A DNA stretch of 64,000 nucleotides from a virus. The notes beneath the pieces were generated by a model that saw nothing but the letters and a program-made list of their open reading frames with translations, did not search any database and was not told the origin of the DNA. The stretch's first letter is position 1. Each line of letters starts with the position of its first letter. The stretch covers positions 16,480-80,479 of the IMG/VR virus record IMGVR_UViG_3300005830_000045; one strand, given 5' to 3'. A program made the translations under genes and the position numbers. Below are positions 27,388 through 55,921 of the stretch, piece by piece.

Positions 27388-27448
27388 AAAAAAGTTGAAA
27401 TCAAGGCAAAAAACTTCTTGACCTTTGAAGCTGTATGGCATTATCCTG
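27388..27448 (+). promoter_or_regulatory. Phage early-type promoter with A-tract UP-like element
   Basis: AAAAAAGTTG...TTGACC-18-TATCCT; collinear homolog at 55940-56000. Confidence 0.65.
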
Positions 27449-27489
27449 GATTTATTGGCGCAAACAAAATGGCAAGGAGCAGTGACGCT

Positions 27490-28653
27490 ATGCCATCACC
27501 AAAAGACTCCCACGATAGCAGAGGCAGGGCAAAGGTCAAGTGCGAAGTCTGTGGACTTTGGTATCATCGGCTTGATGTCCACATTGCCAAGAAGCACGGA
27601 ATGAACGTCGAGCAGTACCAAGCGACGCACCCAGGGTGCCCAACCATCAGCGAGGCAGCATCCCAGGCAGCGTCATCCGCAGCGGTTAAAAAGGCGTCTC
27701 ACGCCAAAGTAGTCAGAGAAGCGAAAGAGGAAACGTTCAGCGGAGACAAGGACACGTTCCGTATCGGCGTGGCACGCCTCAAGATGCGAAAAGACCTCAG
27801 CGAAGTAGACAAATTTCACGTTCCGGACTACGACCCAAAATACAATCTCGGCATGATGGAGAGAGAGAATTGGGAATATATCGCTCTTGGCGTTCAAGAT
27901 AGTGAAAACGTTTTCATCTCCGGTCCAACCGGGTGCGGTAAAAGTTTGGGCGTTCTTCAACTCGCAGCAGCTCTCAATCAGCCTGTGCAGCGTATCAACC
28001 TTCACGGTGAAGTCAGAGCTTCTGACTTCGTTGGTGATAAGACTGTTGATGTTGACCCTGAAAGTGGACAAGCCGTTGTTGTGTGGAAAGATGGCATTCT
28101 CCCTAATGCTATGCGCAACGGCCACTGGTTGCTTCTCGATGAATTGGATGCTGCGCCTGCTCACGTGCTTTTCGTGCTCCAGTCTGTTCTCGAAAAGGGG
28201 ATGCGCCTTGTCCTTTCAAACAACAACGGAGAAATAGTAAAGGCCCACGAAAGTTTTCGCATTATCGCAACGGCCAACACTTTTGGCAGAGGCGATGATA
28301 GCGGAATGTACGGCGGTACAAATATTCTCAACGAGGCATTTCTTGATCGTTTTGGAATCGTGATTCTCGTTGATTACCCTGGCGAGTTAACCGAAAGGGA
28401 CATCATCGTGGAGCGCACTGGCTTGAATGGAGATGATGCTAGTAAGATGGTCAAGATTGCTCATGATGTTCGGAAGGCTTTGGAGAATGAAACGGTTTTT
28501 TGTTCTTTCTCGACAAGGCGTCTTGTCGCATGGGCACAAGCCTCTGTTCGATTGGGAGATGTTAAAAGGGCAGTCAAAATCAGCGTAACAAATAGGTTGA
28601 GCGCTGAGGATGCAACATTTATTTCTGGATTGGTCCAAAGGTATTGGGGGTGA
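27490..28653 (+). CDS. MoxR/CobS-like AAA+ ATPase with N-terminal Ros/MucR-like Zn finger
   Basis: CEVC...H....H; GPTGCGKS; LLLDELD; IATANT; NEAFLDRF; STRRLVAW. Confidence 0.9.
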   Translation: MPSPKDSHDSRGRAKVKCEVCGLWYHRLDVHIAKKHGMNVEQYQATHPGCPTISEAASQAASSAAVKKASHAKVVREAKEETFSGDKDTFRIGVARLKMRKDLSEVDKFHVPDYDPKYNLGMMERENWEYIALGVQDSENVFISGPTGCGKSLGVLQLAAALNQPVQRINLHGEVRASDFVGDKTVDVDPESGQAVVVWKDGILPNAMRNGHWLLLDELDAAPAHVLFVLQSVLEKGMRLVLSNNNGEIVKAHESFRIIATANTFGRGDDSGMYGGTNILNEAFLDRFGIVILVDYPGELTERDIIVERTGLNGDDASKMVKIAHDVRKALENETVFCSFSTRRLVAWAQASVRLGDVKRAVKISVTNRLSAEDATFISGLVQRYWG

Positions 28654-28764
28654 TTAGATAAATCTTTCCAATAAAACCTAATAAATTCACAAAGTAGCAA
28701 AAAAGTTTGTTTTTTTGGTAGAATTTTTTGGCAAATTCGTTTATGTTTATCTTATCGGCAACAA

Positions 28765-30795
28765 ATGATGAGGCTAAGGATGAAATTAAAGACCAATGCT
28801 CGCAGAAACGCACTTGATGGCCCTTTCACAGCGATAGCAAGGGCCCAAAGTCGTTCCTGGAAAGTCAATATCGTAGCTTCCGGCAGCGTTCTCGCAACAG
28901 ATGGCAATACTATATATTTTCCATGGAATAGCGATGACATCGACACTATTCCTTTCAACGTTTTGAATGGATACCTTGACCATGAGGTGGGGCATATCGC
29001 AGAAGAAAGGGAGCATGCTATAGACGGTCGTGAGACTCCTCTTGAAATCGCAAAGCGTCAAACAAATATCACAAAAAGAATGCTCCTCAATGTATACGAA
29101 GACATTCGTATGGAGATAAAAAGGGGCAAGATTTATCCTGGAGTCGCAGCAAATCTCAAGGCATCTAACGAGCACTCCGTTGGCACCTTTATAAAAAGAT
29201 TTGGTGATGGCGATGGCATGGAAAAGGCTAATTTCTGGCACACTTTAGGGTGCGGGATCATCTTTGCCGCTAGGGAACTTGACACCTTTTGGCTTCCAGA
29301 GCAGTACGCTCCGTTCATGGAAATGCTACAGCCTGAAATCGAGGAAAGTAGGCACGTGGTTTGGGCCCAAGACTCGATGGAGCTTGTCGAGAGAACTTTT
29401 GAAAAAGTCCGTGAACTAGCTAAGGATATTGAAGATTGGATGGAAAAGAAGACAGCTCTGAAGAAAGAAGAGAAAGGCGAGTCAGAGTCAAGCGATACAA
29501 AGGGCAAGAGTGAAAGCGACACGAAGGATGAAGGTGGTGTTGGTGGCCCTAGCGAAGATGGTTCTGACGATGCAACTGCCGAGGATGGTGATGGTGCCTC
29601 TGATAGCGCTGAAGGTGGCGATCAGGAAGTTGGTGAAGGCGAGGAAAGTGCTAGCGGTGTAGAGGGTGGTGTCAGGCGTGGCGATAACGCCGAAGGCGAT
29701 ACCTCGTTTGGTTCACCCTCTACAAGCGCAGAGGACACAAAAGAGGACATGTCTGAAGGCAAAGAAGAAGTGCCATGCGATGGCGCTGAGAAAGCCGCAG
29801 AAATCACAGCTGGGGCTTTTCAAGATGCTGACACCGATGACATCATGTGCGAAGGCAAGAAAGAAATTGAAAAGGCGAGCGAAGATCTTTCTACCTTGCG
29901 CGGTGGATACAACCCCTGCCCCTCTGCCCTTGAGGCTGATCAGTGGATCGTTCCGAAGAAGGGTGAAGAAGCAATTTACAATCAGATCAAGAAGCAGGTC
30001 CAGCAGCAGATTTCTGCACTTCGGTCCAAGTTGATCCACATCATTCGCAGTCGGGCAATTTCTCGCGAGCAATACGAGCAAGACAATGGGAAGCTTGACA
30101 CTTCTTCGCTTTACCGCTTGCGCTTGGGCAGTAAGCAGGTATTCAGCAAGACCGTTTCAGGGCAAATGCTTGACACCGCAGTCACGGTGCTCGTGGACCT
30201 TTCTGGCTCGATGGGCGATTCAAATTTTGCCTATTCCAGAGCTTGTTACGCTAGGATGACGGCTGTTGCCCTTGCAGAAACTTTTGAATCAATCAACGTT
30301 CCTTTCGAGATAATAGGGTTTCACAACAGCTACGACATCCCTTTCAAGCCTGATCGCAGTGGAGCGTTCGTGAATAGACTTCCCTTTGAGTATCACGTTT
30401 ACAAGAGCTTTGAAGAGGTCCATCGCTCCGTTCGATGCCGTCTTGTTGGGATAACAGGACGGCAAGAGAACGCTGATGGCGAGGCAATCGTGGGGGTCGC
30501 AAGGAGATTGGTTGTTCGTCCTGAGAGTCGCAAGCTCATGTTCGTTATCAGCGACGGAAAGCCAGTCTGTCCCGGATTGAGTGATGAAGTTGGCTCAAGA
30601 CATTTGATTGATTCAATCAAAAAGGTGCGAGGGGCAGGGATTATCCTTTTTGGTATCGGAGTGCAGCATTTGGATATCGTGCGTTACTATGGCGTAGAGC
30701 ACAGCATTTGCGTGGACAAACTTGACAAGATGGCCGAAAACATTTTCAAGGTCGTGCGTTCCGTACTTATCGCAGGCCTCAAAAAGGTGGCGTGA
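28765..30795 (+). CDS. CobT-like VWA-domain protein
   Basis: DHEVGH, NVYEDIRME, acidic linker, MIDAS DLSGSM, ADGEAI, ISDGKP. Confidence 0.9.
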   Translation: MMRLRMKLKTNARRNALDGPFTAIARAQSRSWKVNIVASGSVLATDGNTIYFPWNSDDIDTIPFNVLNGYLDHEVGHIAEEREHAIDGRETPLEIAKRQTNITKRMLLNVYEDIRMEIKRGKIYPGVAANLKASNEHSVGTFIKRFGDGDGMEKANFWHTLGCGIIFAARELDTFWLPEQYAPFMEMLQPEIEESRHVVWAQDSMELVERTFEKVRELAKDIEDWMEKKTALKKEEKGESESSDTKGKSESDTKDEGGVGGPSEDGSDDATAEDGDGASDSAEGGDQEVGEGEESASGVEGGVRRGDNAEGDTSFGSPSTSAEDTKEDMSEGKEEVPCDGAEKAAEITAGAFQDADTDDIMCEGKKEIEKASEDLSTLRGGYNPCPSALEADQWIVPKKGEEAIYNQIKKQVQQQISALRSKLIHIIRSRAISREQYEQDNGKLDTSSLYRLRLGSKQVFSKTVSGQMLDTAVTVLVDLSGSMGDSNFAYSRACYARMTAVALAETFESINVPFEIIGFHNSYDIPFKPDRSGAFVNRLPFEYHVYKSFEEVHRSVRCRLVGITGRQENADGEAIVGVARRLVVRPESRKLMFVISDGKPVCPGLSDEVGSRHLIDSIKKVRGAGIILFGIGVQHLDIVRYYGVEHSICVDKLDKMAENIFKVVRSVLIAGLKKVA

Positions 30796-32676: not shown

Positions 32677-33030
32677 TTGGAGGTTTTTTCGGTGCACGGT
32701 GACAGAGACTCATATCACGTGGCGGCACCGGGAAGAGATAGAGAGGGGTGTCTCGTCCATGCAATACAGGAGTACAGAAGAGTGAAGTTCGGTGACGATG
32801 TAATCTTGCGCCGGGGTGGCCACCCTGACAAGCGCCCTGGTCAGTTCAGGGATGTGAGGGCCCGCTACATTGGCGCAAGGGGTCACGGGATCTACTGTGA
32901 GTTGCTGCAAGACGATCCAGACGCTGTTGTCCAACCTAAGACAAAGGGGGGCAAAGGATGGTGGTCTCGCAGCATCATGAGGAGAGGTGATTCTGATCTT
33001 GATGGGCCGCCAGAGAAGAGTGATGAGTAA
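32677..33030 (+). CDS. Hypothetical protein
   Basis: Fills the gap and overlaps the next gene. Confidence 0.5.
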   Translation: MEVFSVHGDRDSYHVAAPGRDREGCLVHAIQEYRRVKFGDDVILRRGGHPDKRPGQFRDVRARYIGARGHGIYCELLQDDPDAVVQPKTKGGKGWWSRSIMRRGDSDLDGPPEKSDE

Positions 33031-34111
33031 ACCGAGACTCGAATGTGCTGACTGCGGACATCACATTTGGGATCGTAACATCAAAGAGTACCTGGAAGCC
33101 GTGAAGAGGAAGCGGGATGAAGAATTTATGGAAAGAGTAGTGATAATTGGCGGAGGTGTGTCTGGTCTCCTTGCGTCGTATGTTGTGAAACGCTATGGAA
33201 GAAGGGTGAAAGTCATAGAGGAAGCAAAGCCAGGTGGCGACTTTCTTTTGGGAGGTTTGAAGTATATACACAGAACGGTCAGAATGGAAGGTTTATTCAA
33301 TGAACTTTCACTTCCATGGAGCCATTATAGGGTCAATGGCGGAATAATGCTGAAGGGGAAAGTTGAACCATATCCGAAATGTCTTCAGTTTATGAGTAAA
33401 GAAGAAGCAATGAGGATACAAGAAGATCATTACAGAAAAACGAGAAAGTCAGAGCCTGGAAAGTTTGGATCAAAGGCCATGAATGATCCGGCAGCGAAAG
33501 TTTCTAGGCGGGCAATTCGTTGTGACTTTGAAGAAATGATTAAAGAATTGGCGAAAAGAGCAGACATAGTCAAAGCTCGTGTTTCTTTTATTGAGTCAAA
33601 AAGAAATAGGGTGAAAACATTTGATGGTGAGTTTATCTATTATGACCGTTTGATCGTAACTATTCCTCTTTGGATTGTTCATCATATTGCTGACTTTTAT
33701 GTTCCGCAAGGGATGGCGATGTCTCTGAACATTTTGGATGTTATTCCAAATAGAGATAGATATGCTCGATGGGATTACATTTACACCCCTTACACTCCGT
33801 CAAGCGCGGTTCATCGTTTGAGCCCAAGTGATCATGGATATAGCATCGAGATCAATGGTGATTGGGCCCAACAAGAAAGAGCTACGTGTAACGATTTGGC
33901 CTTTCTTTTCCCTGACGGGTTTGTCGTTCGTGGTGCTAAGATTGGCACAAAGGGGCATTTGCTTGAGCTCGTGGTAAAGCCTGATTGGCCTGAAAATGTT
34001 ACGCCTTTGGGCCGTTTCGCGCAATGGGATCCACGAGCAACAACTGATGTCACTTTGGACAATATTCATAAGATGGCAAAGGGCTGGGGATGGAAAAAGA
34101 TTCCTTATTGA
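33023..34111 (+). CDS. FAD/NAD(P)-binding oxidoreductase (UDP-galactopyranose mutase/HemY-like fold)
   Basis: VVIIGGGVSGL, IEE...GG, YDRLIVTIP, LGRFAQW. Confidence 0.8.
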   Translation: MSKPRLECADCGHHIWDRNIKEYLEAVKRKRDEEFMERVVIIGGGVSGLLASYVVKRYGRRVKVIEEAKPGGDFLLGGLKYIHRTVRMEGLFNELSLPWSHYRVNGGIMLKGKVEPYPKCLQFMSKEEAMRIQEDHYRKTRKSEPGKFGSKAMNDPAAKVSRRAIRCDFEEMIKELAKRADIVKARVSFIESKRNRVKTFDGEFIYYDRLIVTIPLWIVHHIADFYVPQGMAMSLNILDVIPNRDRYARWDYIYTPYTPSSAVHRLSPSDHGYSIEINGDWAQQERATCNDLAFLFPDGFVVRGAKIGTKGHLLELVVKPDWPENVTPLGRFAQWDPRATTDVTLDNIHKMAKGWGWKKIPY

Positions 34112-35016
34112 GAATGTGGGAGATTCAAAAGCAACAACAAGCTGATCTTGGTCTTGATCCTCGTTACATGAACGGCGTGAATAAACGTGTTGCCGCTGGT
34201 GAGTTGATACAGGGGCTGTACGAGGAGTTGTCAGAGCTTCAACGGTATGCCTCGACATATAAGAGGCACATTCTGTCGGTTGAAGGCGTCAACAAAGGGA
34301 ATGTCACGGAAGAAATCGTTGACGTGTTAAAACTTCTCATTTCGGTGGCCCAGCTCCATGGCATTTCTCCGGTTGATCTTGTGAGCGCTTTTGAGAGAAA
34401 GACACGAGTGATAGCAGCTAAGGCAGAGGGGCAACGGGTTGAGTTGTGTGTAAACACGAAAGTCCTCTGCGTGGATATGGATGATGTCATCGCTGATCTT
34501 TCCCCTTGGGTGAAGGAGCAACAGGAACTAAGAGGTGATGCCCCGATGAATGCCAAGACTATGCAGTTGGTGGAAGCGTGGAAAGGTGATTGGTATCGTT
34601 TAGGACGTTTTTTGGAATTGAGGCCGATTGAAGGCGCATCTACAGCGCTTGGCGTTGTGAAAAGTTGGGGGTGGAAAGTTATCATTATCACGGCAAGACC
34701 GCAATGGCAATACAAGCGTATTTACGCAGACACTCTTGAGTGGCTTCGGGCGCACGAAGTTCCGCATGATTTGATACTTTTCAATAAGGACAAAGTTGAA
34801 GCTATATATGATCACATATCTCCTGCTTGGCCGGTTGCTTTTGTTGAAGATCAGGAAAGAAACGCTGTTCAACTCAGCGCGGCTGGAGTAAAGGTGTTAT
34901 TATTCGATACGGAACGCAATCAAGATTTCGTGTTGCCAAACGGCGTGCAAAGGGTTGCGAACTGGACAGAAGTTCTTTTAGCTTTGGAAAAAAGAAAGAA
35001 AGGGGGGCGCCGATGA
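34090..35016 (+). CDS. All-alpha NTP pyrophosphatase (dimeric dUTPase/dCTPase/MazG-like) fused to NT5C-like HAD nucleotidase
   Basis: EELSEL...EEIVDVLK; then VDMDDVIADL, IITAR, KDK, FVEDQ. Confidence 0.8.
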   Translation: MEKDSLLRMWEIQKQQQADLGLDPRYMNGVNKRVAAGELIQGLYEELSELQRYASTYKRHILSVEGVNKGNVTEEIVDVLKLLISVAQLHGISPVDLVSAFERKTRVIAAKAEGQRVELCVNTKVLCVDMDDVIADLSPWVKEQQELRGDAPMNAKTMQLVEAWKGDWYRLGRFLELRPIEGASTALGVVKSWGWKVIIITARPQWQYKRIYADTLEWLRAHEVPHDLILFNKDKVEAIYDHISPAWPVAFVEDQERNAVQLSAAGVKVLLFDTERNQDFVLPNGVQRVANWTEVLLALEKRKKGGRR

Positions 35017-35969
35017 ATGAAAAGCCCAAAGTCACCTTGCTTACTTGGACCATGAATCCTTTGGAAACGGTTTACTCTGTTTGGCAAGCCTCGAAAAGCG
35101 AGGATGAGCTGGTTACGCCTTTCAATGTGAAAACATCAGTCTCGCAGGAAGAAGTTGAAAGACTTTTCAGGGCTGTAATTGCCCAGCGTATTCCGATTGG
35201 GGAGCATGTTGATTTCGTTTTCATGCTTGAAAACGTCAGTGTGAGTTGGCGCGAACAAGCTGTGCGACACAGGATTGGAACGCTTCCAAGCCCAGAGCGT
35301 GTCGGCGTGGACATTGTCATGGATCAAATTCCAGATTTGCCGGACAGTTCATTTTGGTCGCAGTCGATGAGAATACAAAATATGAGCAACTTCGCCAGAA
35401 AAGGCGCTTACAGGTTGCCTGAGACAGTTATAGAGGCAGGGCCTGAAATGGTTTCTCTTTATAAAGAAACTATGAGGTTGATCGAGAGGACATATGCGGT
35501 TTTGGTTGAAGAAGGTGTTCCTATGGAGGATGCCCGTGAACTTATTCCTCTTGGCGCCCAACACAGAATTAGTTGGCGGCTCAATATAGGTTCCCTGCAA
35601 CATATCGTTGGGAAGCGAGGGTGTTGGATTCTCCAGCTTGGAATTTGGGGGCCTGTGATTACGGGGATGGTCAACGAATTGGCGACAAAGGTCCATCCGG
35701 TTTTCAGAGAATTGGTTGCGCCTCCTTGTTTGAAAGGCGATGAGTTTATGGGGTGTATTTACCATGAGGAGTGTCGCAGGCGTTATACTGGTGATGATGC
35801 GCTTCCGCCTTGCCCGCTTCATCTTACCTATCATGAATTGCCTGCCAAGGGGTTGGAATACGTTGAAGCACAATTCTTATATCCTCGTATGGAAGAAATG
35901 GAGGAACGAGCGGAGCAGTATCGCGTTTTTTGGGGCAGAGATCCGTATACAGGAGAAAGGTTGTGTTAG
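35013..35969 (+). CDS. Divergent ThyX-family flavoenzyme
   Basis: EHVDFVF, EQAVRHR, SFWSQSMR, GVPMEDARELIP, Cys-rich C-terminus; insertion in the signature motif. Confidence 0.8.
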   Translation: MNEKPKVTLLTWTMNPLETVYSVWQASKSEDELVTPFNVKTSVSQEEVERLFRAVIAQRIPIGEHVDFVFMLENVSVSWREQAVRHRIGTLPSPERVGVDIVMDQIPDLPDSSFWSQSMRIQNMSNFARKGAYRLPETVIEAGPEMVSLYKETMRLIERTYAVLVEEGVPMEDARELIPLGAQHRISWRLNIGSLQHIVGKRGCWILQLGIWGPVITGMVNELATKVHPVFRELVAPPCLKGDEFMGCIYHEECRRRYTGDDALPPCPLHLTYHELPAKGLEYVEAQFLYPRMEEMEERAEQYRVFWGRDPYTGERLC

Positions 35970-36176
35970 ATGGGACGAAAGATTCATTGGTCTGGCGGGG
36001 TGATGTTGTCTATGGTTAGGATGCTTCGTGGGTATCCTTGTTGCTGTTCTGGAGACAAGGCGCTCAAAATCAGGTCTTTTGGGAACCAAACAGAAAAACG
36101 TGAAGACGTAACATGCAAGGATTGCTTAGGCATTCTAAAAAGGCAGGATAAGTACCATGAAGATCACAACTGTTGA
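35970..36176 (+). CDS. Small Cys-containing hypothetical protein
   Basis: H...CC...VTCKDC, possible Zn site; coupled to both neighbours. Confidence 0.55.
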   Translation: MGRKIHWSGGVMLSMVRMLRGYPCCCSGDKALKIRSFGNQTEKREDVTCKDCLGILKRQDKYHEDHNC

Positions 36177-36909
36177 TTTGGGAGGAATATGCGTGGCGAA
36201 AGTTGTTGATAGTCGCACAGGAGAATTTGATCGTGCTCGTATTAGAGATAATGCTCCGCATTCGCATTATGCTCTTGATCGTGAGGATATTCACATTGAG
36301 CTTGCTGCCTTTGAAAAGGTTTGCAGGAGAATAGGAGAGCGTAGTGATTGGACCGTATTCGAGCCATTTGGTGGTTCTGGTTGGCATTCTTCTTTGATCA
36401 GGCGTTTGGTTGGTCCAAGAAAGCAATTTGTGGTTGATATTTCAAAGGATTGCATTCGTTCTGTTTGTGCTGGTTTGAAAGGCAATCGTGGTGTGATTGC
36501 TATTTGCGGAGATGGCTGTGATTACCTAAGGCATTCCAAGTGGAAATTCAATTGGATTCACGCTGATTTCAATATTTGGACGGCTGAAGACATGAGTCTT
36601 GACCCTGAGTTGCGTGGCACTTGGAATGCTCTCTTTGAAATGGCAACGGATTGTATTACTTTCACGGACACTACGCATTATCACCTGGCTAATAGTCCTG
36701 TTGTGTATTGGTATGATGAAGTTGATCGTTGGATCAAGGTCACGAAGGGTTGGAAAGTTGATTTCGTGTTCGATTGGGGGCCAGCGGCCATGCATGTGCT
36801 TTCTCCTTTGAAGGAGAAAGAAAAAGAGGTTTTCGCAAAACCGCTCATAGTACAGGTCAGGGAACCTATGAAGGTAACAGTTTTGAGAGAGGAGAGCAGT
36901 GATGAGTAA
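36157..36909 (+). CDS. Class I SAM-dependent methyltransferase-fold protein
   Basis: VFEPFGGSG (motif I), VVDIS (II), CGDG (III), WIHADFN in place of DPPY. Confidence 0.6.
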   Translation: MKITTVDLGGICVAKVVDSRTGEFDRARIRDNAPHSHYALDREDIHIELAAFEKVCRRIGERSDWTVFEPFGGSGWHSSLIRRLVGPRKQFVVDISKDCIRSVCAGLKGNRGVIAICGDGCDYLRHSKWKFNWIHADFNIWTAEDMSLDPELRGTWNALFEMATDCITFTDTTHYHLANSPVVYWYDEVDRWIKVTKGWKVDFVFDWGPAAMHVLSPLKEKEKEVFAKPLIVQVREPMKVTVLREESSDE

Positions 36910-38260
36910 TCAGAATGAAGACACGACCATTGACACTATGGTATTCAACAAGCGTTTGATGAATAACATTGTCAGACTTCCTTTTGAAGTTGAAACAGCT
37001 CGTGGTTCTGCTATTCGTACTGTTCAGGGGCACGTTTTGTTGGATTTCTGGGGCGATGAAGGCGTATGTAGTCTTGGATACAACACAGAAGAATACAGAA
37101 GGATAGTGGATAATTTTCACAGCAGTGGACAACCGCATCAGTTGCCAGATGTTTATCCCCAGACCTCCAGATTCAACGCAGCAGAGAAGATTTGCCAGAT
37201 GACAGATATGGACCGCATCTTTTTCGCAAATAGCGGTACAGAAGCGAATGAAGCAGCCATCAAAATTGCAAGAAAATTTTGGTGGGATAAGTATAGCAAT
37301 ATATATAGAGAAGGAAGAATAAAGTCAAATAAAGCGTACGCACGGCGGCATATAGTTCTCACAATTGCCGGAAACTTTCATGGCAGAACTGGGCTAAGCA
37401 GCGCGGCAAGCGACCCAAGGGTCAGTCCGTATCACCATTGGGGGTTTGGCCCGAAGCCAAAAGGTTTTGGCGTTATCGACGATAAGACTTTCCTTCAAGT
37501 CGTTACAGACGGCGATGTCCATGAAGATTATCCGATTGAACCTGATTGGTCCAACGTTGCTGCTGTGATTCTTGCTCCGGTTTTGGGAAACAATTTGGTA
37601 AAGACATATTCTAAAAGCTTTTGGGAGGAACTTGGAGCTTTGAGGAAGAAGCACGGATTTCTTATTATCCACGATGACGTTCAAGCCGGAAGCGGAAGAG
37701 CAGGTTGGCCAGCAACGTATCAAGGGATTTCTGTCTTTGATTCGAGGTTTGAAAGCTTGGTCAAACCAGACATATTGTGTCTCGGGAAAGGCATGGCTCT
37801 TGGCTATCCAATGAGCGCGATGCTTGCCTCTGAAGAAGTTGCTTCCGCTTTTACTCCCGGTGTCCACTTCAACACTTTTGGAGGCAGCCCTTTCGTTTGT
37901 TATCTTGCCGAGCAATATTATAGTTGGCTTGAATTGGAACTTCCGAAAGTCAGAGATTTGGGCGAGGCAATTCGTTTGCGTTTCTCTGAAATGGCCTGGA
38001 TCAAGGAGCATGACGGGTCTGGTTTGCTCAACGCTTTCACGCCTAATTTCGGGAAGTATGGATATGATGGTTTTGAGTTTTGTCACAAGGCTCGTGATTT
38101 CGGCATTAGCATTGTGACCCATCGACGATATGGGCCAATTCGATTCACGCCTCCAATGAACGTTGCTCCTGATGAGATTGCTACCGCCTTTATTGCGTTG
38201 GAAAGAACACACAAGTTTTTGACAAAAGAACACAGAAGCTTTAGGTTGGAGGATGAATAG
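36899..38260 (+). CDS. Class III PLP aminotransferase (ArgD/OAT-like)
   Basis: NSGTEANEAAIK, FHGRT, HDDVQAGSGRAG, PDILCLGKG (PLP Lys), HFNTFGGSP, RFTPP. Confidence 0.92.
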   Translation: MMSNQNEDTTIDTMVFNKRLMNNIVRLPFEVETARGSAIRTVQGHVLLDFWGDEGVCSLGYNTEEYRRIVDNFHSSGQPHQLPDVYPQTSRFNAAEKICQMTDMDRIFFANSGTEANEAAIKIARKFWWDKYSNIYREGRIKSNKAYARRHIVLTIAGNFHGRTGLSSAASDPRVSPYHHWGFGPKPKGFGVIDDKTFLQVVTDGDVHEDYPIEPDWSNVAAVILAPVLGNNLVKTYSKSFWEELGALRKKHGFLIIHDDVQAGSGRAGWPATYQGISVFDSRFESLVKPDILCLGKGMALGYPMSAMLASEEVASAFTPGVHFNTFGGSPFVCYLAEQYYSWLELELPKVRDLGEAIRLRFSEMAWIKEHDGSGLLNAFTPNFGKYGYDGFEFCHKARDFGISIVTHRRYGPIRFTPPMNVAPDEIATAFIALERTHKFLTKEHRSFRLEDE

Positions 38261-38840
38261 CGTAGTGATACTGGACGGGTTGAATGCAAGCGGAAAGACA
38301 TTCTGCGCGGAAACGCTTTCTGAATTGCTTCCAGCCCCAATAATACGTCCATTTAGAGAAAACAATGAGCATCTTGGAAGAGAAGATAAAGGCGCTCAAG
38401 AAAACCTACACAAACTTGGCATCCCGGCCAATACGTTTGTCGATGATGCTTATACGTCTGACTTTTTGGTTCAAACAGGAGTAAGCGCTGTTTTGGACCG
38501 TTCTATGGGTTCTGGCATTGCCTATGGCCTTCTGTACGGAAACATTGCGAATATGAAGCACGCCAGAGAATTGTTGTCGCTTTGGCAAGAGAGCATCACG
38601 AGGTATAACGGAAACATTTTGTATGTGTATATGATTGCTCGGAAAGAAGTCAGGAAGAAAAGGTGTAAAGCTGAAGGAAGATGGCACCCTAACGCTTCAC
38701 AGGACAAACTGCTTTATAAAGTCTTTGATCTTGTTTTTAGGTGTATTGAATTTGAAAAGATATTGGTTGATTCTTCCGATATAGCCCAGGAATGCATTGG
38801 TCCGGTTGTTGCGAAGAAGATAATCAAAAGACTGAGGTGA
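38253..38840 (+). CDS. dNMP (thymidylate-like) kinase
   Basis: LDGLNASGKT P-loop; VLDRSMGSGIAYG. Confidence 0.8.
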   Translation: MNSVVILDGLNASGKTFCAETLSELLPAPIIRPFRENNEHLGREDKGAQENLHKLGIPANTFVDDAYTSDFLVQTGVSAVLDRSMGSGIAYGLLYGNIANMKHARELLSLWQESITRYNGNILYVYMIARKEVRKKRCKAEGRWHPNASQDKLLYKVFDLVFRCIEFEKILVDSSDIAQECIGPVVAKKIIKRLR

Positions 38841-38843
38841 TTC

Positions 38844-39206
38844 ATGTTTAAGTCGTTAGAAGAAATGAGAGAGCAACTTCGCAGAGGGATTGCAACCAGG
38901 TGTTCAAAAGTGGTGGATTCAAGGGAAGATTCAAGCTCTGGAAGCGAGACAATAGCTGGGCAGATGTCTCTGGTTGGTGATCCAGTTGCAGACTTTGAAA
39001 ACGCAGACACGCGCTTGTATCTTGATGAGGAAGAAGAAGAAAAGGAGAAAGGTCCATGGAGCGGTACGCTTCCTGCTGTTGTGAAGCACGTTGAGGAGAA
39101 GTATGGGCCAATAAAGGGCAGACACGTTGATATTATTGTTGTTGATGATATCATTGTCGATAAAGAAGATATCAGAGCGAGGGGGAAGAATAGTGGGAAA
39201 AGCTGA
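38844..39206 (+). CDS. Hypothetical protein
   Basis: GAGGT SD; acidic; ends with KGRHVDIIVVDD. Confidence 0.55.
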   Translation: MFKSLEEMREQLRRGIATRCSKVVDSREDSSSGSETIAGQMSLVGDPVADFENADTRLYLDEEEEEKEKGPWSGTLPAVVKHVEEKYGPIKGRHVDIIVVDDIIVDKEDIRARGKNSGKS

Positions 39207-39555
39207 TGTGGATGAATGGTTTGAAGCAGACCTTGAAATACGTGAAGCGATTGATATTCGCGGTGGAAAGTATCCAGGGATTTCTCTTTCTCCAACCTTT
39301 GAGTTGAAAGGGCCATTGCCTCTGCGAGCCAAAAGTAGATTTCGCCATACTAAGTATTTGATCTTGGAAGATAAATCAGATGCACTTTTGAGTTTTGGCA
39401 AGCATTCCGGTAAATTTGTTTCTGCGGTTGCTTCGATTGAGCCTGATTATCTTAGATGGATTTTGAAAGAGGAGTTTTCTGCCGATTTGAAAGAAGTTGT
39501 CGATAATGTTTTGAATGGAACCAAGCCTGTTGACATGAAGTTTCGTGGAAAGTAA
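39193..39555 (+). CDS. Small protein with FGKH.G...YL.W motif (DUF3820/ExoX C-terminal-like)
   Basis: LSFGKHSGKFVSAVASIEPDYLRWIL. Confidence 0.65.
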   Translation: MGKADVDEWFEADLEIREAIDIRGGKYPGISLSPTFELKGPLPLRAKSRFRHTKYLILEDKSDALLSFGKHSGKFVSAVASIEPDYLRWILKEEFSADLKEVVDNVLNGTKPVDMKFRGK

Positions 39556-39590
39556 ATCCTCCCTAGTCTTTCGCAAGAAAGTAGGCGTTC

Positions 39591-42500
39591 ATGCATGATT
39601 CAGAAAAGAAAGAAGATTTTGTTCATCTCCACACTCATAGTGATTTGAGTCAGCTTGACGGCTGCGGAAAGATTTCTGATTACGTGGACGCAGCCCATAA
39701 GCGTGGAAATCCAGCAATCTCGTTCACTGATCATGGAACTATGAGAGGATACATGACGCAGTATGAGGAGTGCAAGAGGGCTGGAATCAAGCCAATCTAC
39801 GGGGTTGAATTCTACGTTTCTCGAAATATGTACCGTAAGGGTATCACCGCTGAAGAAAAGACGGAACTTTCAAAGGGCAGGACCAAGGCGCAAGCGAAGG
39901 AGGTGATTGCGCAATACGAAATAAATGAAGGGATCAGAAAGCGTTGGCACCTGACGGTGCACGCCGAAACAGAAGCGGGGCTGAAAAACCTTTTCAGACT
40001 GACCTCGAAAGCTTTCATTGAAGGTTTTTACTACAAGCCTCGAATAGATATTGAAACGCTCTGCGAGCACAGCGAAGGTTTGATTGTTTCTTCTGGTTGC
40101 GTTGGAAGTCCAGTCAATAGTAATTGGTTTGAAGGGAATAGGCGTTATGCCGTTGAAGTATCAGATAAGTTGCATGAGGTGTTCCAAGACCGTTATATGA
40201 TTGAAATTCAGCCGCACGATATAGCAGAACAGCTGGAAGCGAATAAGTTGGCTGTGAAACTCAGGAAAAGATATGGCGGGAAATCGCGTCTTGTCGCGAC
40301 GCAAGATGCTCATTATATCAACAAAAGTGATGCCGTTCACCACGATGTTCTTCTTTGCATAGGCACAGGAAGTTATCTTTCAGACCCAAAGCGTATGAAG
40401 TTTGACGGCGATGAATTTCATATGCGAACACGTCGTGAGATGATTCGAGCATTCATGAAGTGGCACAGCGGATTGACCAAGGGCCAAATAAAAGAGGCAT
40501 TGGACACCACGATGCTCTTCCACGAGCGTTGCAACGTCAAACTCAATATTGACTATCACGCAGCCTTGCTTCCTGATCCTGGTATCCCTCCTGAATATGT
40601 CGATGATTTCTCGTATTTGAAAGATTTGTGCATTCAAGGTTGGAGCTGGAGAGAAATACCGGCAAGGGCTTTAGCGTATTCGGTGAAACACGGGGTGCCT
40701 TACGAGGAAGCTTTGTCGCTTTACAGCAAACGTTTGAAGCATGAACTTGGAGCTATAAAGAAGCAAAGATTTGTTCCGTATTTTATTCTAATACACGACT
40801 TGTATCGTTGGGCACGCGGTGAGAATATAATGGTTGGCCCTGGTCGTGGAAGCGTAGCAGGTTGCCTAATTGGGTATCTGATCGGATTGACTTCTGTTGA
40901 CCCTATTGATCATGGGTTGATCTTTGAGCGATTCATCAACCCAAATCGTATCGACATGCCTGATATTGATATGGACTTTGAAGACAGGAGAAGGCAAGAG
41001 GTTTTTGCATACCTCAGGAGGAAGTACGGTGAAGACAAAGTTTGCCAAATTGCCACCGTTGGCAAGCTATCCGGGAAGCAGTGTCTCAAGGATGTTTCTC
41101 GCGTTCTACAGGTTCCATACGCGGAAGTCAACCAGGTGACAAATTCCATCATCGAGCGTTCTAGCGGGGATGAACGGGCATCGCAGACAATTGAAGACTC
41201 TTTCAAGGAGTTTGAAATATGTCGAGATTTTGATAAGAGATACCCGAAAGTTTTGTATCATTCAAAACGTCTTGAAGGCATGGCCAAAAACTTGGGAATA
41301 CACGCTGCAGGAGCTGTTGCCTCTCCGGTGCCGCTGACAGATATCATCCCTCTGGAAGTGAGGAAGCATAATGGGAAAGATGTTATAGTCTCAGCCGTGG
41401 ACATGTACGGCGTTGCTGCGAGTGGTTTGGTAAAGCTCGATGTTTTAGGTTTGCGCACACTCACCGTTTTGAAAGAAGCGACAGAAGCGATAGAAGAAAG
41501 GCATGGCAGGAAGATTGACCTTGAATCAGCAGAAGTTGATTTGAGCGACCCGAAAGTTTTGAAGGGGTTCACAGATCACGATTATGGAGGCGTTTTTCAG
41601 TATGATACGCCTTCAGCGGACAAGGTCTGTTCAGGCGTCAAGTTCTCTTCTTTCGAGGACATTGCCGCCATGACAGCTCTCAACAGGCCAGGCACATCCA
41701 GAAGCGGTTTGGCATCCCGATATGTGGACAGAAAAAAGAATCCAGAGAAAGCAAAGAAACACGATTTCCATCCAGCTGTTTCCGAGATAACGAAGGACAC
41801 GTTGGGCATTATCGTGTACCAAGAGCACGTCATAAAGATATTCACAGACATCGCTGGATTTGCTCCGGCAACGGCTGACTCTTTGCGTAAAACAATCGCT
41901 AAAAAGATTGGCGATGAAACCATGGGGAAGGAACGTGCCAACTTTGTTGCTGGAGCTGTTGAGAAAACGGGAATGGACGAGAAAACCGCACATAAGATTA
42001 TGGACGCGATAACTTTTTTCGGGTGCGTTCCTTGGTGGACGCAAATAGCAACGCCATTTGGGCCAAGGGCAATTGATTCTTTGTCTGATGGTGATGAAAT
42101 TTACAGCGTTGAAGAATGCGGGAAAGTTGTCATCAATACCATAAAGACGGTCACAAGCACAGGGCCAAAGGATTTGTATCGAATAACTGCGAGCGGTTTT
42201 ATGGTTGATTCTTCCAACGACCACTATTGGGAGTGCATGGAAGGAGGTTACAAAAAGGCTAGTGAGCTTTGTGAAGGTGAATTCATATCGTATGTTATGG
42301 GGCATGGATTCAAATCATCCGAAAAAGAAAAGCTTTTGCTTGAAGAAGGATTGCGCAAGGGAAGTGTTTTGCCGAGGATTGTGCAGCCTTCATTATCAGA
42401 GACAGTACAGAAAGAAGCGGACAGAAAAGGGCAACCCTGTGAGCAGTGCGCACAACAAGTGGCCCGGAGCACCGGGCAAGGGTTGGAAAAGGGGCAAAAA

Positions 42501-44357
42501 CAAGAATACGCATCCAGGGATAGCAGCGCACGCGAAAGCTATGATGGGAGAGTTGAATCCGGCTTGGACAGACTGGAGTTATTCAGAATTCAAAATAATG
42601 AAAGATACGCTGCTGGAAAAGATAAAGGTCTGCCAAAGGTGCGGTTGCCCTCCGGACGAGGGAAGCGATGCCCCGAATGTGAGAGTTTTGCACGTCCACC
42701 ACAAGAACAGAAACAAAAAGGACAATTCGGCGGACAACTTGGAAGTTCTCTGTCAATCTTGTCACAGCAAGGAGCATTGGGAGGAAAAGCACTCTGGTGG
42801 ATTCGGGTGGATGAAATTCGTCAAATAGCAGATAGATCAACGCACAGAAGTGGTTGCCCTGCTAGGGATATTGAGTGTTATGACATAGAGGTTGATTCTA
42901 GTCCATGTAATTATGTGGCTAACGGAATAATATGCCATAATTCCTATGGATTCAATAAGAGCCATGCAACAGCTTATGGGATGATAGCGTTTTGGTGCAT
43001 GTTTCTCAAGACCTATTATCCTCTTGAGTTTTATTGGTCGCTGTTGAAAAACGAGCCAGACCGTGTCCGGATACAACAGTTGGCGAAACACGCAAAGAAG
43101 AAAGGCATATCATTCTTGTCGCCTTCTGTGAACACTTCCAAGGCGCACTTTGCCATAGATGATAGTCGTGGAGCAATTCGAGGTTCCCTTGTAGACATAA
43201 AAGGAGTTGGGACAGCGGCAGCGAAAGCTATTATGGCGACGCAGCCTTATACTGACTTTTTTGACTTCCTTGATCGAGTAGACAAGAGAAAGGTTCACAA
43301 AGGCGTCGTGGCTTCTCTTGTCCGGGCAGGAGCACTGGATGATTTGGTCCCCAATCCTCGGTGGCTTATTGAGAACATGGAAGCATTCTGGAAGCAAGTT
43401 GCGAAGAAGTCAGAGGAAGCGCAGAAAGAAGCAAGGCGGATGATTGAGGCGTCAAAGGATGAAAAGTCTTGGGACGCAGAGGAAAAGCAGCTTATCGCTT
43501 CCAAGGTGAACCCTCTTGCTTTCGGGAAGCACCCGATGGATACTTACAAGGATTTCTTGAATAAAAACGTGAAGATAAAGATTGCAGATATGTCAGCTGG
43601 TGATTTCTATGAGAGGAATGATGGAAGAATAGTCCTTGTCGGTGGAACTATAGTGGAAGTGAAACTCAATCAAATAGGTGACTTTCACACTGGAAGGCTG
43701 CCGACTGAAGAGGAACGTGAGCGTATGTTTTGGGGGAAACGTTATGCTAACGTAAACATAGAAGATATTGGCGGAGTTCAGAATAGAATCAAGTTTGATT
43801 GGGACGTTTACCCTGGTATGCGTCCTGTTATTGAATTAGGTTTGGGTGCTCCGGTGCTCGTGATGGCCTCTGTGAATGCGAAATTTGAGAACATGAGGGC
43901 TTTTTTCGCAGTCGATTTGGAGGGGATGAGAAAGAAGTTGATTTCGGGGAAACCATTGGGCATGTGGGAAAGCATTGTGACCGGAAACCATCCTGTGAAG
44001 CACATAAAGGCTAAGAGCGATGCCGTCAAAAGAGCCATGTGGACCAATAAATATTACAGGATGTCTCCGAAAGGAGGTCCATTTTGGGGTGTTGTGACGA
44101 ACATTCGTTTGAAATACGACAAGCGCGGTCAACTTATGGCTTTCTTTGGTCTTATTGGCGGCAACGGTTTCATGATTGATGTAATTTGCTTTGCTTCTCA
44201 ATGGGAATTTGTCAAAACTGTAATCAGCGTTGAACAGGTGTTGAAGATAGAAATAGGCAGATCAAGAGAAAGAGGCAGAGGAGTGTCTCACATTTTCAAC
44301 GGTGGCTTGGTAAAAAGTTTCAAGTCTGTTTGTGAAAAGGAGAAAGAAGATGAGTAA
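39591..44357 (+). CDS. dnaE: DNA polymerase III alpha subunit containing an intein
   Basis: HLHTHS, TDHG, DAH (PHP); GPGRGS; PDIDMDF; HAAG; KLDVLGL; YGFNKSH; OB folds. Confidence 0.97.
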   Translation: MHDSEKKEDFVHLHTHSDLSQLDGCGKISDYVDAAHKRGNPAISFTDHGTMRGYMTQYEECKRAGIKPIYGVEFYVSRNMYRKGITAEEKTELSKGRTKAQAKEVIAQYEINEGIRKRWHLTVHAETEAGLKNLFRLTSKAFIEGFYYKPRIDIETLCEHSEGLIVSSGCVGSPVNSNWFEGNRRYAVEVSDKLHEVFQDRYMIEIQPHDIAEQLEANKLAVKLRKRYGGKSRLVATQDAHYINKSDAVHHDVLLCIGTGSYLSDPKRMKFDGDEFHMRTRREMIRAFMKWHSGLTKGQIKEALDTTMLFHERCNVKLNIDYHAALLPDPGIPPEYVDDFSYLKDLCIQGWSWREIPARALAYSVKHGVPYEEALSLYSKRLKHELGAIKKQRFVPYFILIHDLYRWARGENIMVGPGRGSVAGCLIGYLIGLTSVDPIDHGLIFERFINPNRIDMPDIDMDFEDRRRQEVFAYLRRKYGEDKVCQIATVGKLSGKQCLKDVSRVLQVPYAEVNQVTNSIIERSSGDERASQTIEDSFKEFEICRDFDKRYPKVLYHSKRLEGMAKNLGIHAAGAVASPVPLTDIIPLEVRKHNGKDVIVSAVDMYGVAASGLVKLDVLGLRTLTVLKEATEAIEERHGRKIDLESAEVDLSDPKVLKGFTDHDYGGVFQYDTPSADKVCSGVKFSSFEDIAAMTALNRPGTSRSGLASRYVDRKKNPEKAKKHDFHPAVSEITKDTLGIIVYQEHVIKIFTDIAGFAPATADSLRKTIAKKIGDETMGKERANFVAGAVEKTGMDEKTAHKIMDAITFFGCVPWWTQIATPFGPRAIDSLSDGDEIYSVEECGKVVINTIKTVTSTGPKDLYRITASGFMVDSSNDHYWECMEGGYKKASELCEGEFISYVMGHGFKSSEKEKLLLEEGLRKGSVLPRIVQPSLSETVQKEADRKGQPCEQCAQQVARSTGQGLEKGQKQEYASRDSSARESYDGRVESGLDRLELFRIQNNERYAAGKDKGLPKVRLPSGRGKRCPECESFARPPQEQKQKGQFGGQLGSSLSILSQQGALGGKALWWIRVDEIRQIADRSTHRSGCPARDIECYDIEVDSSPCNYVANGIICHNSYGFNKSHATAYGMIAFWCMFLKTYYPLEFYWSLLKNEPDRVRIQQLAKHAKKKGISFLSPSVNTSKAHFAIDDSRGAIRGSLVDIKGVGTAAAKAIMATQPYTDFFDFLDRVDKRKVHKGVVASLVRAGALDDLVPNPRWLIENMEAFWKQVAKKSEEAQKEARRMIEASKDEKSWDAEEKQLIASKVNPLAFGKHPMDTYKDFLNKNVKIKIADMSAGDFYERNDGRIVLVGGTIVEVKLNQIGDFHTGRLPTEEERERMFWGKRYANVNIEDIGGVQNRIKFDWDVYPGMRPVIELGLGAPVLVMASVNAKFENMRAFFAVDLEGMRKKLISGKPLGMWESIVTGNHPVKHIKAKSDAVKRAMWTNKYYRMSPKGGPFWGVVTNIRLKYDKRGQLMAFFGLIGGNGFMIDVICFASQWEFVKTVISVEQVLKIEIGRSRERGRGVSHIFNGGLVKSFKSVCEKEKEDE
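42024..42941 (+). mobile_element. Intein in DnaE (306 aa)
   Basis: FFG|CVPWWTQI (block A), SSNDHYW (block B), CYDIEV...NYVANGIICHN|S (blocks F/G); removal restores FFGSYGFNKSH. Confidence 0.95.
42292..42828 (+). CDS. HNH homing endonuclease nested in the +1 frame of the intein
   Basis: C....C......GLC..HY Zn motif; GELNPAW; CQRCG...LHVHHKNRNKKDNSADNLEVLCQSCHSKEH; ORF open from 42205. Confidence 0.9.
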   Translation: MLWGMDSNHPKKKSFCLKKDCAREVFCRGLCSLHYQRQYRKKRTEKGNPVSSAHNKWPGAPGKGWKRGKNKNTHPGIAAHAKAMMGELNPAWTDWSYSEFKIMKDTLLEKIKVCQRCGCPPDEGSDAPNVRVLHVHHKNRNKKDNSADNLEVLCQSCHSKEHWEEKHSGGFGWMKFVK

Positions 44358-54776: not shown

Positions 54777-55265
54777 ATGGTTACGAAAAAACACAAGGGC
54801 AGGCCAAAGCAACCGACGTGCCCGCATTGCAAAAGGCCTCTTTTCAAGAGGATGGATGCTGGACAAGTTCAGAAGTCTGATCCCTATAGTTGGTGCCGCA
54901 ATAAATCGTGTGCCTGGTACAACAAAAGTCAGACTGATGATTCTTCTTTCACTCCTCTGCCAGGTGACGGGTCTGGCTGCAAGCGTCTGAAGAAAAAGAA
55001 ACTTCGTAAAAAGGTGAAAGCCACTAAGAAGGCAATAGCAGCCAAGCCTAAGCAGACAGAGGCAGAGCCTGTGACTAAGGCACGGGAAAGAATAAAGCGT
55101 GTTTTAGAGGCAGCAGAGAAGCAATACGGGGCAAATGCGATTGGCCTTGCTCTTGCTATCGTTTCGCAAGAAACTGGAAACCAAAAGGCGGCAAATCTAC
55201 TTATTGAGGAATACAACCTAATAGAGTTGTACGGCATATTGCCGCAGAAACGAGAAAAAAGTTGA
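54777..55265 (+). CDS. Basic Zn-ribbon protein
   Basis: CPHC...CRNKSC; Lys-rich; AGGAG SD. Confidence 0.6.
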   Translation: MVTKKHKGRPKQPTCPHCKRPLFKRMDAGQVQKSDPYSWCRNKSCAWYNKSQTDDSSFTPLPGDGSGCKRLKKKKLRKKVKATKKAIAAKPKQTEAEPVTKARERIKRVLEAAEKQYGANAIGLALAIVSQETGNQKAANLLIEEYNLIELYGILPQKREKS

Positions 55266-55921
55266 TCCTGGTGGAGCCGTCTTATGAGATAATCAAATGG
55301 CCGTGTGATGCGCTTCAAATGATCGAAGCAGCGGCACGAAACTGTTACAAATCCGAGCATCGCACCAAAAATGGTTCGGCTGAGTCTTTAGTGCGTCGCC
55401 TGATCAAACACGGGCACACTGCTATGATCGAATTTGGTGGTGACGTTTATGTCAAATTCACCTCCAATAGAGGATTCACCCACGAGCTTGTCAGGCACAG
55501 GCTGGCCAGTTACGCGCAAGAGAGCACGAGGTATTGCAACTATTCAAAAGACAAGTTCACGAGGAACGTCAAGAACGTTTCCGGAGATTCAATGCACCAT
55601 TGTTTCAAAAACGGATATTCACTCAATCTCTACGTGCATGGGTTGAATGAGTGTTTTCGTTTTTGCGAGGAGTGGTATTTGAAGATGGTGGACGCAGGTG
55701 TTCCGCTTGATTGCGCAAGAGAGGTTTTGAACATCGGCCTGAAGGCAGATGTGGTGATGAAAGCAAACATTGTTGAGTGGAGGCACGTGTTCCGTCAGCG
55801 GACATCGAAGAAAGCGCATCCTCGAATGAGGCAACTCATGGTGCCGCTCCTGTTGGATTTGAACGAAAAAATTCCGGTAGTGTTCGAGGATTTGGCTGAA
55901 AAAGTTGCCAAAAAAGTCTAA
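55262..55921 (+). CDS. thyX: FAD-dependent thymidylate synthase (canonical)
   Basis: GHTAMIE; RGFTHELVRHRLASYAQESTRY; AREVL; QRTSKKAHPRMR. Confidence 0.95.
   Translation: MILVEPSYEIIKWPCDALQMIEAAARNCYKSEHRTKNGSAESLVRRLIKHGHTAMIEFGGDVYVKFTSNRGFTHELVRHRLASYAQESTRYCNYSKDKFTRNVKNVSGDSMHHCFKNGYSLNLYVHGLNECFRFCEEWYLKMVDAGVPLDCAREVLNIGLKADVVMKANIVEWRHVFRQRTSKKAHPRMRQLMVPLLLDLNEKIPVVFEDLAEKVAKKV

Follow-up and report, generated by a model that had tools for sequence, protein, structure and literature searches.

We analyzed a 64,000-nucleotide stretch of viral DNA (hereafter, the window), the final 64 kb of the 80.5-kb IMG/VR virus record IMGVR_UViG_3300005830_000045, in which nearly all genes lie on the plus strand. 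One of its open reading frames (ORFs) encodes a 318-residue protein with the fold of ThyX, the flavin-dependent thymidylate synthase (FDTS); this protein, P0001 in our collection, is called XL here. XL departs from ThyX on the folate side of the active site, and it belongs to a family of viral proteins that are encoded next to replicative polymerases and nucleotide-degrading enzymes. The reading we favor, without giving it an even chance and with plain thymidylate synthesis close behind, is that XL produces a C5-substituted deoxyuridine monophosphate (dUMP) other than deoxythymidine monophosphate (dTMP).

XL matches the Pfam family Thy1 (PF02511) with an E value of 2.3e-19 and 70.3 bits (68.3 bits in the genome search), above the gathering threshold of 24.8. 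Against the NCBIfam model TIGR02170 it scores 49.6 bits, below the thyX equivalog cut-off of 87.9, whereas the canonical ThyX that is also encoded in the window passes the same cut-off with 109.4 bits. The motifs quoted in an earlier note, which had been made from the letters of the window, were all found on translation of both ORFs: QRIPIGEH, SVSWREQAVRHR and SSFWSQSMR in XL, and GHTAMIE and RHRLASYAQESTRY in the canonical copy. Between the second and the third of the XL motifs lie RHRIG and 23 additional residues. The contiguous ThyX motif RHR-x7-S-x-R-Y is absent from XL, in which the 23 residues split the motif and Ile replaces the Tyr. By these measures, XL belongs to the Thy1 superfamily but not to the thyX equivalog, whether set by score, by motif or by the His/Tyr pair described below.

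The structure of XL was predicted with AlphaFold2 (AF2) from 34 diverse relatives (predicted local distance difference test, pLDDT, 87.5; predicted template modeling score, pTM, 0.85). The model is confident outside residues 93-109, within the insertion, where the pLDDT is below 50. The comparison with Thermotoga ThyX proposed in the earlier note was run on this model, and Thermotoga maritima ThyX was the best match in the Protein Data Bank (PDB) (TMt 0.77, Z 14.8; root-mean-square deviation 2.5 over 200 residues), with the common core ending near residue 238. The ThyX proteins of Mycobacterium tuberculosis (Z 14.5), Helicobacter pylori (13.7) and PBCV-1 (13.0) were also matched, as was PolB, a fold-level match only (Z 14.0 at 18% identity). 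Only chains of the ThyX family score a Z of at least 5; all others reach at most 4.1.

Residue conservation was counted in 227 XL relatives of 280-400 amino acids, and correspondence to T. maritima ThyX was taken from the alignment. T. maritima R74, R78, H79, R80, S88, R90, R147 and R174 correspond to XL R80, R85, H86, R87, S118, R120, R175 and R202, respectively, all of which are invariant or nearly so; in the RHR motif, R85 is present in 225, H86 in 218 and R87 in 212 of the relatives. Judged from the alignment, XL retains with these eight residues those that hold flavin adenine dinucleotide (FAD) and the phosphate and uracil of dUMP. Glu144 and Arg174, the residues mutated in the solved T. 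maritima ThyX folate complexes, are both retained, as E172 and R202. The Asn163 equivalent is likewise retained, and that of Arg165 is not conserved.

The folate side is different. In T. maritima ThyX, hydrogen bonds join His53, Tyr91 and Asn85 in a single network stacked against folate and flavin; His53 packs on the pterin of the folate and on the reduced flavin, and Tyr91 is a proposed general acid, mutation of which slows flavin oxidation ~1000-fold (PMC11940539). In PolB, the aromatic ring of Tyr99, the counterpart of that Tyr, is essential (PMC5003785). Members of the XL family have no conserved His at the His53 position (position 59 is variable, R/K/D/H/G, and position 60 is I/L/V), and position 121, equivalent to Tyr91, is always I, V or L and aromatic in none of the 227 relatives. 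The Asn85 equivalent, position 115, is an invariant Trp; in the same loop, Q117 and R120 are invariant as well, and position 118 is S or T. On this alignment, the whole His53/Tyr91/Asn85 network is missing from the family. The earlier note's claim of an altered folate side is thereby borne out family-wide, whereas its further suggestion, that folate may no longer be used, is not supported, E172 and R202 being retained. The losses of His53 and Tyr91 alone are no proof of new chemistry, because the PB1-type phage ThyX also lacks both.

Two additions to the ThyX fold characterize the family. The insertion immediately before the active-site loop, estimated in the earlier note at roughly 20-25 residues, comes to 23 residues, with an alignment gap of 26 columns relative to the canonical copy. 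In ~95% of the 227 relatives, RHR is separated from the Ser motif by 19-27 residues, P107 being near-invariant, and we regard the insertion as a hallmark of the family in this alignment rather than a chance feature. The second addition is a C-terminal domain of 115 residues with four Cys (C204, C239, C248 and C267), all present in 225 of the 227 relatives. The four Cys are also complete in gp61 of Pseudomonas phage PB1 and in a ThyX paralogue from a related viral record (G023), and all four are missing from LIS04_124 of Listeria phage LIS04; this all-or-none pattern in the outgroups fits a joint metal site, and the Cys4 domain is probably a metal domain. C204 lies two residues past R202, so the candidate metal site would be close to the active center, going by sequence position alone. 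Modeled by itself, the domain reached a pLDDT of 88.5 and had no match in the PDB (best Z 2.6; none from Foldseek at E <=0.001), which does not establish a new fold.

Two sites in longer relatives of XL are occupied by inteins, one directly preceding the S..W.QS.R loop and the other at C204, a placement typical of functionally critical motifs. Inteins of the HNH type were seen in P0121, P0122, P0123, P0128, P0158, P0197, P0207 and P0261, with two in P0158. In the long family members examined for fusions, the added length was all intein, with no Rosetta-stone partner.

A word-index search returned 447 matches to XL at 60-75% identity, and the family comprises 183 clusters (50% identity) at E <1e-30. 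All members found come from metagenomes or viral contigs. In 185,579 genomes of cellular species, a pattern scan revealed no XL relative, an absence that holds at the sensitivity allowed by the pattern; megablast of the gene cluster against cultured phages gave no match, and the best cultured-phage proteins are at most 28% identical to XL. The family thus sampled appears to be a large, virus-only branch of ThyX. The phylogeny of both copies suggested in the earlier note places XL outside ordinary ThyX: XL and LIS04_124 form one clade (approximate likelihood-ratio support, SH-aLRT, 98) and the canonical copy with its relatives another (100), the canonical sample consisting of relatives of the window's copy only and not of the full diversity of ThyX. 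PB1 gp61 falls between the two clades, on long branches.

For comparison of gene content, we used 40 related viral records beside the window's own, 20 of which are at least 90% complete. None of these 40 XL-carrying records contains an orthologue of the canonical copy, and ThyA (PF00303) is absent from all 41 records, the control being positive in 10 of 14 reference genomes. Because only the window's record has the canonical copy, XL is to be viewed as the resident gene and canonical ThyX as a late, lineage-specific addition, which inverts the earlier designation of XL as the second ThyX: XL is found throughout the phage group, with the canonical copy as the extra one. The canonical gene is surrounded by small unknown genes, between 5'-3' exonuclease and amidase genes near the end of the window. 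By analogy with PolB, XL is a candidate for neofunctionalization beside a housekeeping copy. One other record, G023, has a second, Cys4-type ThyX paralogue besides XL. A shorter paralogue of this type also lies ~3 kb upstream of XL in three PolA-type phage loci; it has no loop insertion, and its substrate-loop Arg (R120) is replaced by His.

Gene neighborhoods were compared in 68 related viral loci, which fall into two unrelated groups. Group A, to which the window belongs, consists of DnaE phages of ~80-116 kb, and group B of PolA phages of 45-65 kb. Both groups pair XL with 5'-deoxynucleotidases that are not homologous to each other, of the HAD type in 29 loci and HD YfbR-like in 28 loci of group B, and in both groups XL adjoins the replicative polymerase. 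The remaining neighbors are variable and, judging from their predicted families, enzymes of a tailoring type. In group A these include a class III aminotransferase and an FAD protein with the amine-oxidase fold; in group B, a nucleoside-deoxyribosyltransferase-family protein (Nuc_deoxyrib_tr, 25 loci), DUF6378 (19 loci), radical SAM-SPASM (12 loci) and SDR (6 proteins), with XL also beside PolA and primase-helicase. The linkage between the transaminase and XL, to which the earlier note had drawn attention, is conserved in ~27 related loci. About 35 XL loci have no aminotransferase nearby, group B lacking it, so that an aldehyde made by the transaminase, the example of a substrate named in that note, cannot be the general substrate of the family.

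These observations bear on the product of XL as follows. A non-thymine product is favored because this genome keeps both genes intact, XL with every family-invariant residue and the canonical copy with a score above the cut-off; because XL fails the equivalog cut-off and forms a separate clade; because the catalytically important Tyr91 is lost family-wide; because XL is accompanied by 5'-deoxynucleotidases of non-homologous types in two phage groups that are not related; because tailoring-type enzymes adjoin XL; because of the parallel with the SP-15 group of phages, in which LIS04 carries LIS04_124 and SP-15 has a C5-alkyl uracil and two Thy1 genes; and because the family was not found in cellular genomes. 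In the mechanism we propose, XL would still use flavin N5 to put a carbon unit on C5 of dUMP, while plain dTMP in the window's phage would be made by the canonical ThyX. The simplest product would be 5-hydroxymethyl-dUMP, formed if the methylene intermediate is hydrated instead of reduced. The amine-oxidase-fold flavoprotein and the omega-aminotransferase might then tailor the substituent from alcohol to aldehyde to amine, the nucleoside monophosphate (NMP) kinase would activate the XL product for the phage DnaE, and the MazG-HAD fusion would remove the competing canonical nucleotides. The Cys4 site would hold either Zn in a structural role or Fe-S acting as a relay to the flavin. Tailoring would vary by lineage, through aminotransferase and amine oxidase, radical SAM-SPASM, or SDR. 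In its general form, a proposal we hold tentatively and short of even confidence, the XL family would be the first ThyX-based entry enzyme for pre-replication DNA base modification, a flavin-N5 carbon transferase that leaves a C5 hydroxymethyl or reductively adds a larger aldehyde-derived chain, tailored differently in each phage lineage.

The strongest competitor, second in our ranking and likewise under an even chance, is that XL is an ordinary dTMP synthase of unusual build, belonging to a long-form FDTS lineage specific to phages. In this lineage the functions of His53, Tyr91 and Asn85 would pass to other residues, W115, Q117, the insertion and the Cys4 domain being examples. The canonical copy would then be a redundant late acquisition, and the aminotransferase and amine-oxidase-fold genes would belong to unrelated auxiliary metabolism, for example of polyamines. 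Several observations point this way and weigh against a non-thymine product. In the Thy1 search, XL was the sole Thy-type gene, with ThyA absent, in 38 of the 40 other records, including 19 of the 20 near-complete ones, so that on the simplest reading XL supplies the dTMP of those phages. The arginines that bind dUMP and FAD and the Glu144 and Arg174 equivalents are all retained, and XL adjoins the replicative polymerase, as thymidylate synthases do. The Cys4 domain and the lack of His53 and Tyr91 recur in PB1 gp61, which is the single Thy1 gene in a phage group that has been studied well and for which we know of no report of modified DNA. The usual path to deoxythymidine triphosphate likewise combines a dUTPase-like domain with thymidylate synthase and thymidylate kinase. 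The 5-hydroxymethyldeoxyuridine DNA kinase (PF18723, HMUDK_hel) had no match in 21 records, the control genomes being equally silent. Weighing against plain dTMP synthesis, on the other hand, are the presence of both XL and the canonical copy, intact, in this genome, the loss of a Tyr whose mutation is so costly in T. maritima ThyX (PMC11940539), the near-universal pairing of XL with enzymes that destroy deoxynucleoside monophosphates, the conservation of tailoring-type neighbors, and a score under the equivalog cut-off.

A generalized form of the idea in the earlier note, which we consider improbable, makes XL a flavin-dependent reductive C5-alkylase that uses an aldehyde larger than formaldehyde. 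The aldehyde would form a flavin-N5 carbinolamine or iminium, C5 of dUMP would attack, and the flavin hydride would reduce the alkylidene to give 5-alkyl-dUMP. Such a condensation is chemically plausible. ThyX can take formaldehyde directly via the N5-carbinolamine (PDB 7NDW, 7NDZ), and XL combines an enlarged substrate loop with loss of the His that stacks on folate. The idea gains a degree of coherence from a possible aldehyde source beside XL in both contexts, namely the omega-aminotransferase or the amine-oxidase-fold enzyme in group A (Aminotran_3 and amine-oxidase fold, 26-27 loci) and, in the PolA phages, the deoxyribosyltransferase/dNMP-hydrolase-like protein, which would yield deoxyribose 5-phosphate (Nuc_deoxyrib_tr). 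Phage SP-15, which makes 5-(4,5-dihydroxypentyl)uracil at the nucleotide level (PMC5977210), groups deoxyribosyltransferase, SDR and Thy1 genes. Against this alternative, the aminotransferase cannot be a general aldehyde source given its absence from group B, an hhalign probability of 11.8% shows no detectable relationship between SP15_130 and XL other than membership in the fold family, the Nuc_deoxyrib_tr proteins might simply serve salvage, and the Glu144 and Arg174 equivalents are retained.

It is very unlikely that XL acts on deoxycytidine monophosphate, uridine monophosphate (UMP) or nucleic acid instead of dUMP, or is a non-catalytic structural or regulatory subunit. In favor of such a reading, the Tyr that gates sugar and uracil is missing, the substrate-recognition loop is remodeled, and acceptance of UMP by a ThyX paralogue has a precedent in PolB (PMC5003785); against it, R202, the equivalent of the Arg next to uracil in solved complexes, and the phosphate-binding arginines are invariant, the genomic context is one of deoxynucleotide metabolism, the active-site motifs are under strong purifying selection, and inteins target exactly these motifs.

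The features of XL and its surroundings are listed in Table 1. In group A, the genes follow the order amine-oxidase-fold FAD protein, MazG-HAD fusion, XL, class III aminotransferase, NMP kinase and DnaE, with the ends of neighboring genes overlapping by a few bases. The amine-oxidase-fold protein, found upstream of XL in 26 loci, has structural neighbors from the Amino_oxidase and protoporphyrinogen-oxidase families in the Atlas (TM 0.74-0.76). The MazG-HAD protein, whose end overlaps the start of XL by 4 bases and which is conserved in 29 loci, has weak MazG/PRA-PH matches at residues 39-107 and intact EXXE...EXXD and DMDDV motifs; it looks like a fusion capable of taking deoxynucleoside triphosphates down to the nucleoside. 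The EXXE...EXXD motifs and the weak matches fall in its first 125 residues (34090-34464, plus strand).

Table 1. XL, its parts and associated genes; positions are those of the window unless a locus is named
Feature	Position	Strand	Basis
XL, long-form ThyX-like flavoenzyme, 318 aa	35013..35969	+	Pfam Thy1, AF2 model, PDB matches
RHR motif R85-H86-R87, FAD and dUMP binding in ThyX	35265..35273	+	Aligned to T. maritima R78-H79-R80
23-residue insertion G89-D111, immediately before active-site loop	35277..35345	+	Absent from canonical copy
Substrate loop S112-S-F-W-S-Q-S-M-R-I121, equivalent to T. maritima S83..S88-G-R90-Y91	35346..35375	+	Family alignment
C-terminal Cys4 domain (C204, C239, C248, C267), candidate metal site	35622..35966	+	Four Cys conserved
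Amine-oxidase-fold FAD protein, 374 aa	32987..34111	+	N-terminal FAD/NAD Rossmann matches
MazG-like NTP pyrophosphatase and NT5C-type HAD 5'-deoxynucleotidase, putative fusion, 308 aa	34090..35016	+	NT5C 1.3e-10
250-aa protein, cluster accessory	36157..36909	+	Homologue in only 7 loci
Class III (omega) aminotransferase, ArgD/OAT-like, 453 aa	36899..38260	+	Aminotran_3 2.3e-51
NMP kinase, thymidylate-kinase-like, 195 aa	38253..38840	+	PHROG 761 8.3e-8
DnaE-type replicative polymerase	39591..44357	+	32-33% identity to phage DnaE-like polymerases
Canonical ThyX, 219 aa, lineage-specific extra copy	55262..55921	+	TIGR02170 109.4 bits
Shorter Cys4-type ThyX paralogue	L069:6413-7294, L044:1800-2681, L045:1759-2643		

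Downstream of XL, the aminotransferase scores under every NCBIfam equivalog cut-off, and its best PDB match is acetylornithine aminotransferase. The NMP kinase, conserved in 24 loci, carries a P-loop (GLNASGKT) and the motif DRS..AYG, and DnaE follows the cluster in 26 loci, an adjacency that points to a module for replication and nucleotide supply. The 250-residue protein has no Pfam or NCBIfam family; its assignment as an S-adenosylmethionine-dependent methyltransferase was not accepted, the only hint being a sub-threshold Spermine_synth match (E 0.11). A Cys-rich ORF of 68 residues (35970-36176, plus strand; CCC, C..C, H..H.C) begins directly past the XL stop codon and was rejected as part of the system, having no homologue in the 68 related loci. 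Upstream of the cluster lies a pair of genes for a CobS-like AAA_5/CbbQ ATPase and a CobT-like VWA protein (27418-30795, plus strand), a position kept in ~19 related loci.

Four estuary metatranscriptome libraries have contigs that match the cluster at ~100% identity, and one of these contigs, 44 kb long, spans it and may be the origin of the virus record. Five public runs are listed with the stretch 32900-39600, all of them estuary RNA libraries, with no DNA library listed. Contigs in RNA libraries give the habitat and show neither transcription, nor its level, nor DNA chemistry, and the RNA-only occurrence could be a sampling artifact or DNA carry-over. The DNA of phage YerA41 reportedly resists sequencing.

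To our knowledge, all experimentally established routes to modified phage thymine begin with a ThyA-type hydroxymethylase, and a ThyX-type route has previously been only guessed at, for SP-15. In two groups of uncultured phages that are unrelated to each other, the XL family occupies a central place in the replication module. Should its product not be dTMP, the family would represent a new class of enzymes carrying out chemistry at C5 of nucleotides, and many abundant uncultured phages would carry thymine analogues hidden from sequencing. Should XL instead be a plain thymidylate synthase, ThyX catalysis would not need His53 or Tyr91, and an unexplained Cys4 domain, possibly a redox or metal site, would have been added to a family that is a validated antibacterial target.

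Among characterized systems, T. maritima ThyX (TM0449; PDB 1O26, 4GT9, 8REO) shares its fold with residues 1 to ~238 of XL, which keeps the equivalents of RHR, the substrate-loop Ser-x-Arg, Arg147, Arg174, Glu144 and Asn163. It differs, at ~20% identity, in having His53/Tyr91/Asn85 and Arg165 and in lacking the insertion and the Cys4 domain. PolB, the UMP/dUMP C5-methylase of polyoxin biosynthesis (PDB 4P5A), is a ThyX paralogue that stands beside a housekeeping ThyX, with its specificity changed through loops around the substrate recognition peptide (PMC5003785). Unlike XL, PolB has 38% identity to ThyX, has retained the RY tyrosine (Tyr99) and uses NADPH and methylenetetrahydrofolate (PMC5003785), whereas XL, viral rather than from Streptomyces, carries Ile121 in place of Tyr99, together with the Cys4 domain and an insertion that is far larger.

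Among cultured phages, PB1 gp61, annotated in Pbunavirus as 'FAD-dependent thymidylate synthase', resembles XL in its long form, the same four aligned Cys, the C-terminal extension and the lack of His53 and Tyr91, and it is the sole Thy1 gene of its phage. It differs in having no insertion and RTR at the RHR position, is 23-26% identical to XL and branches outside the XL clade. The closest cultured relative of XL is gp124 of Listeria phage LIS04 (LIS04_124), which aligns over the full length, including the C-terminal extension (hhalign E 3e-35), but lacks the Cys4 set, the insertion and RHR. Among cultured phages LIS04_124 is an orphan, with only two weak matches, in Bacillus and Gordonia phages. 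A literature search found no assay of any member of the XL clade, of PB1 gp61 or of SP15_130.

LIS04 is filed under the species Thornevirus SP15, as is Bacillus phage SP-15, and LIS04_124 lies downstream of a deoxyribosyltransferase gene, as does SP15_130. SP-15 has two Thy1 genes (gp9 and gp130), the divergent one of which has been proposed to encode a modifying enzyme (PMC5977210), and the title of ref. 42 in that paper points to a ribose-derived label in the SP-15 base. SP-15 also carries a YfbR-like nucleotidase (SP15_090), and its deoxyribosyltransferase, SDR and Thy1 genes lie side by side (SP15_127, 129 and 130). Because SP15_130 is not significantly similar to the XL profile, the link to SP-15 runs only through LIS04_124 and synteny; SP-15 nevertheless shows, as a precedent, that a phage can combine an ordinary Thy1 gene with a divergent one.

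The ThyA-type dUMP/dCMP hydroxymethylases (T4 gp42/gp1/gp56 and SPO1; Lee et al., PMC5889632, PMC8989533) differ from XL in their unrelated fold, and ThyA is found in none of the 41 records. In the XL cluster, tailoring would precede replication, and tailoring by an aminotransferase and an amine-oxidase-fold enzyme is not described in PMC8989533 or PMC5977210. In the T4 and SPO1 systems, an enzyme of the thymidylate-synthase type makes the modified deoxynucleoside monophosphate for activation by a kinase, and the competing canonical nucleotide is cleared by a pyrophosphatase or nucleotidase (PMC5889632, PMC8989533); if XL makes a non-thymine C5-substituted dUMP, its cluster would follow the same pathway logic.

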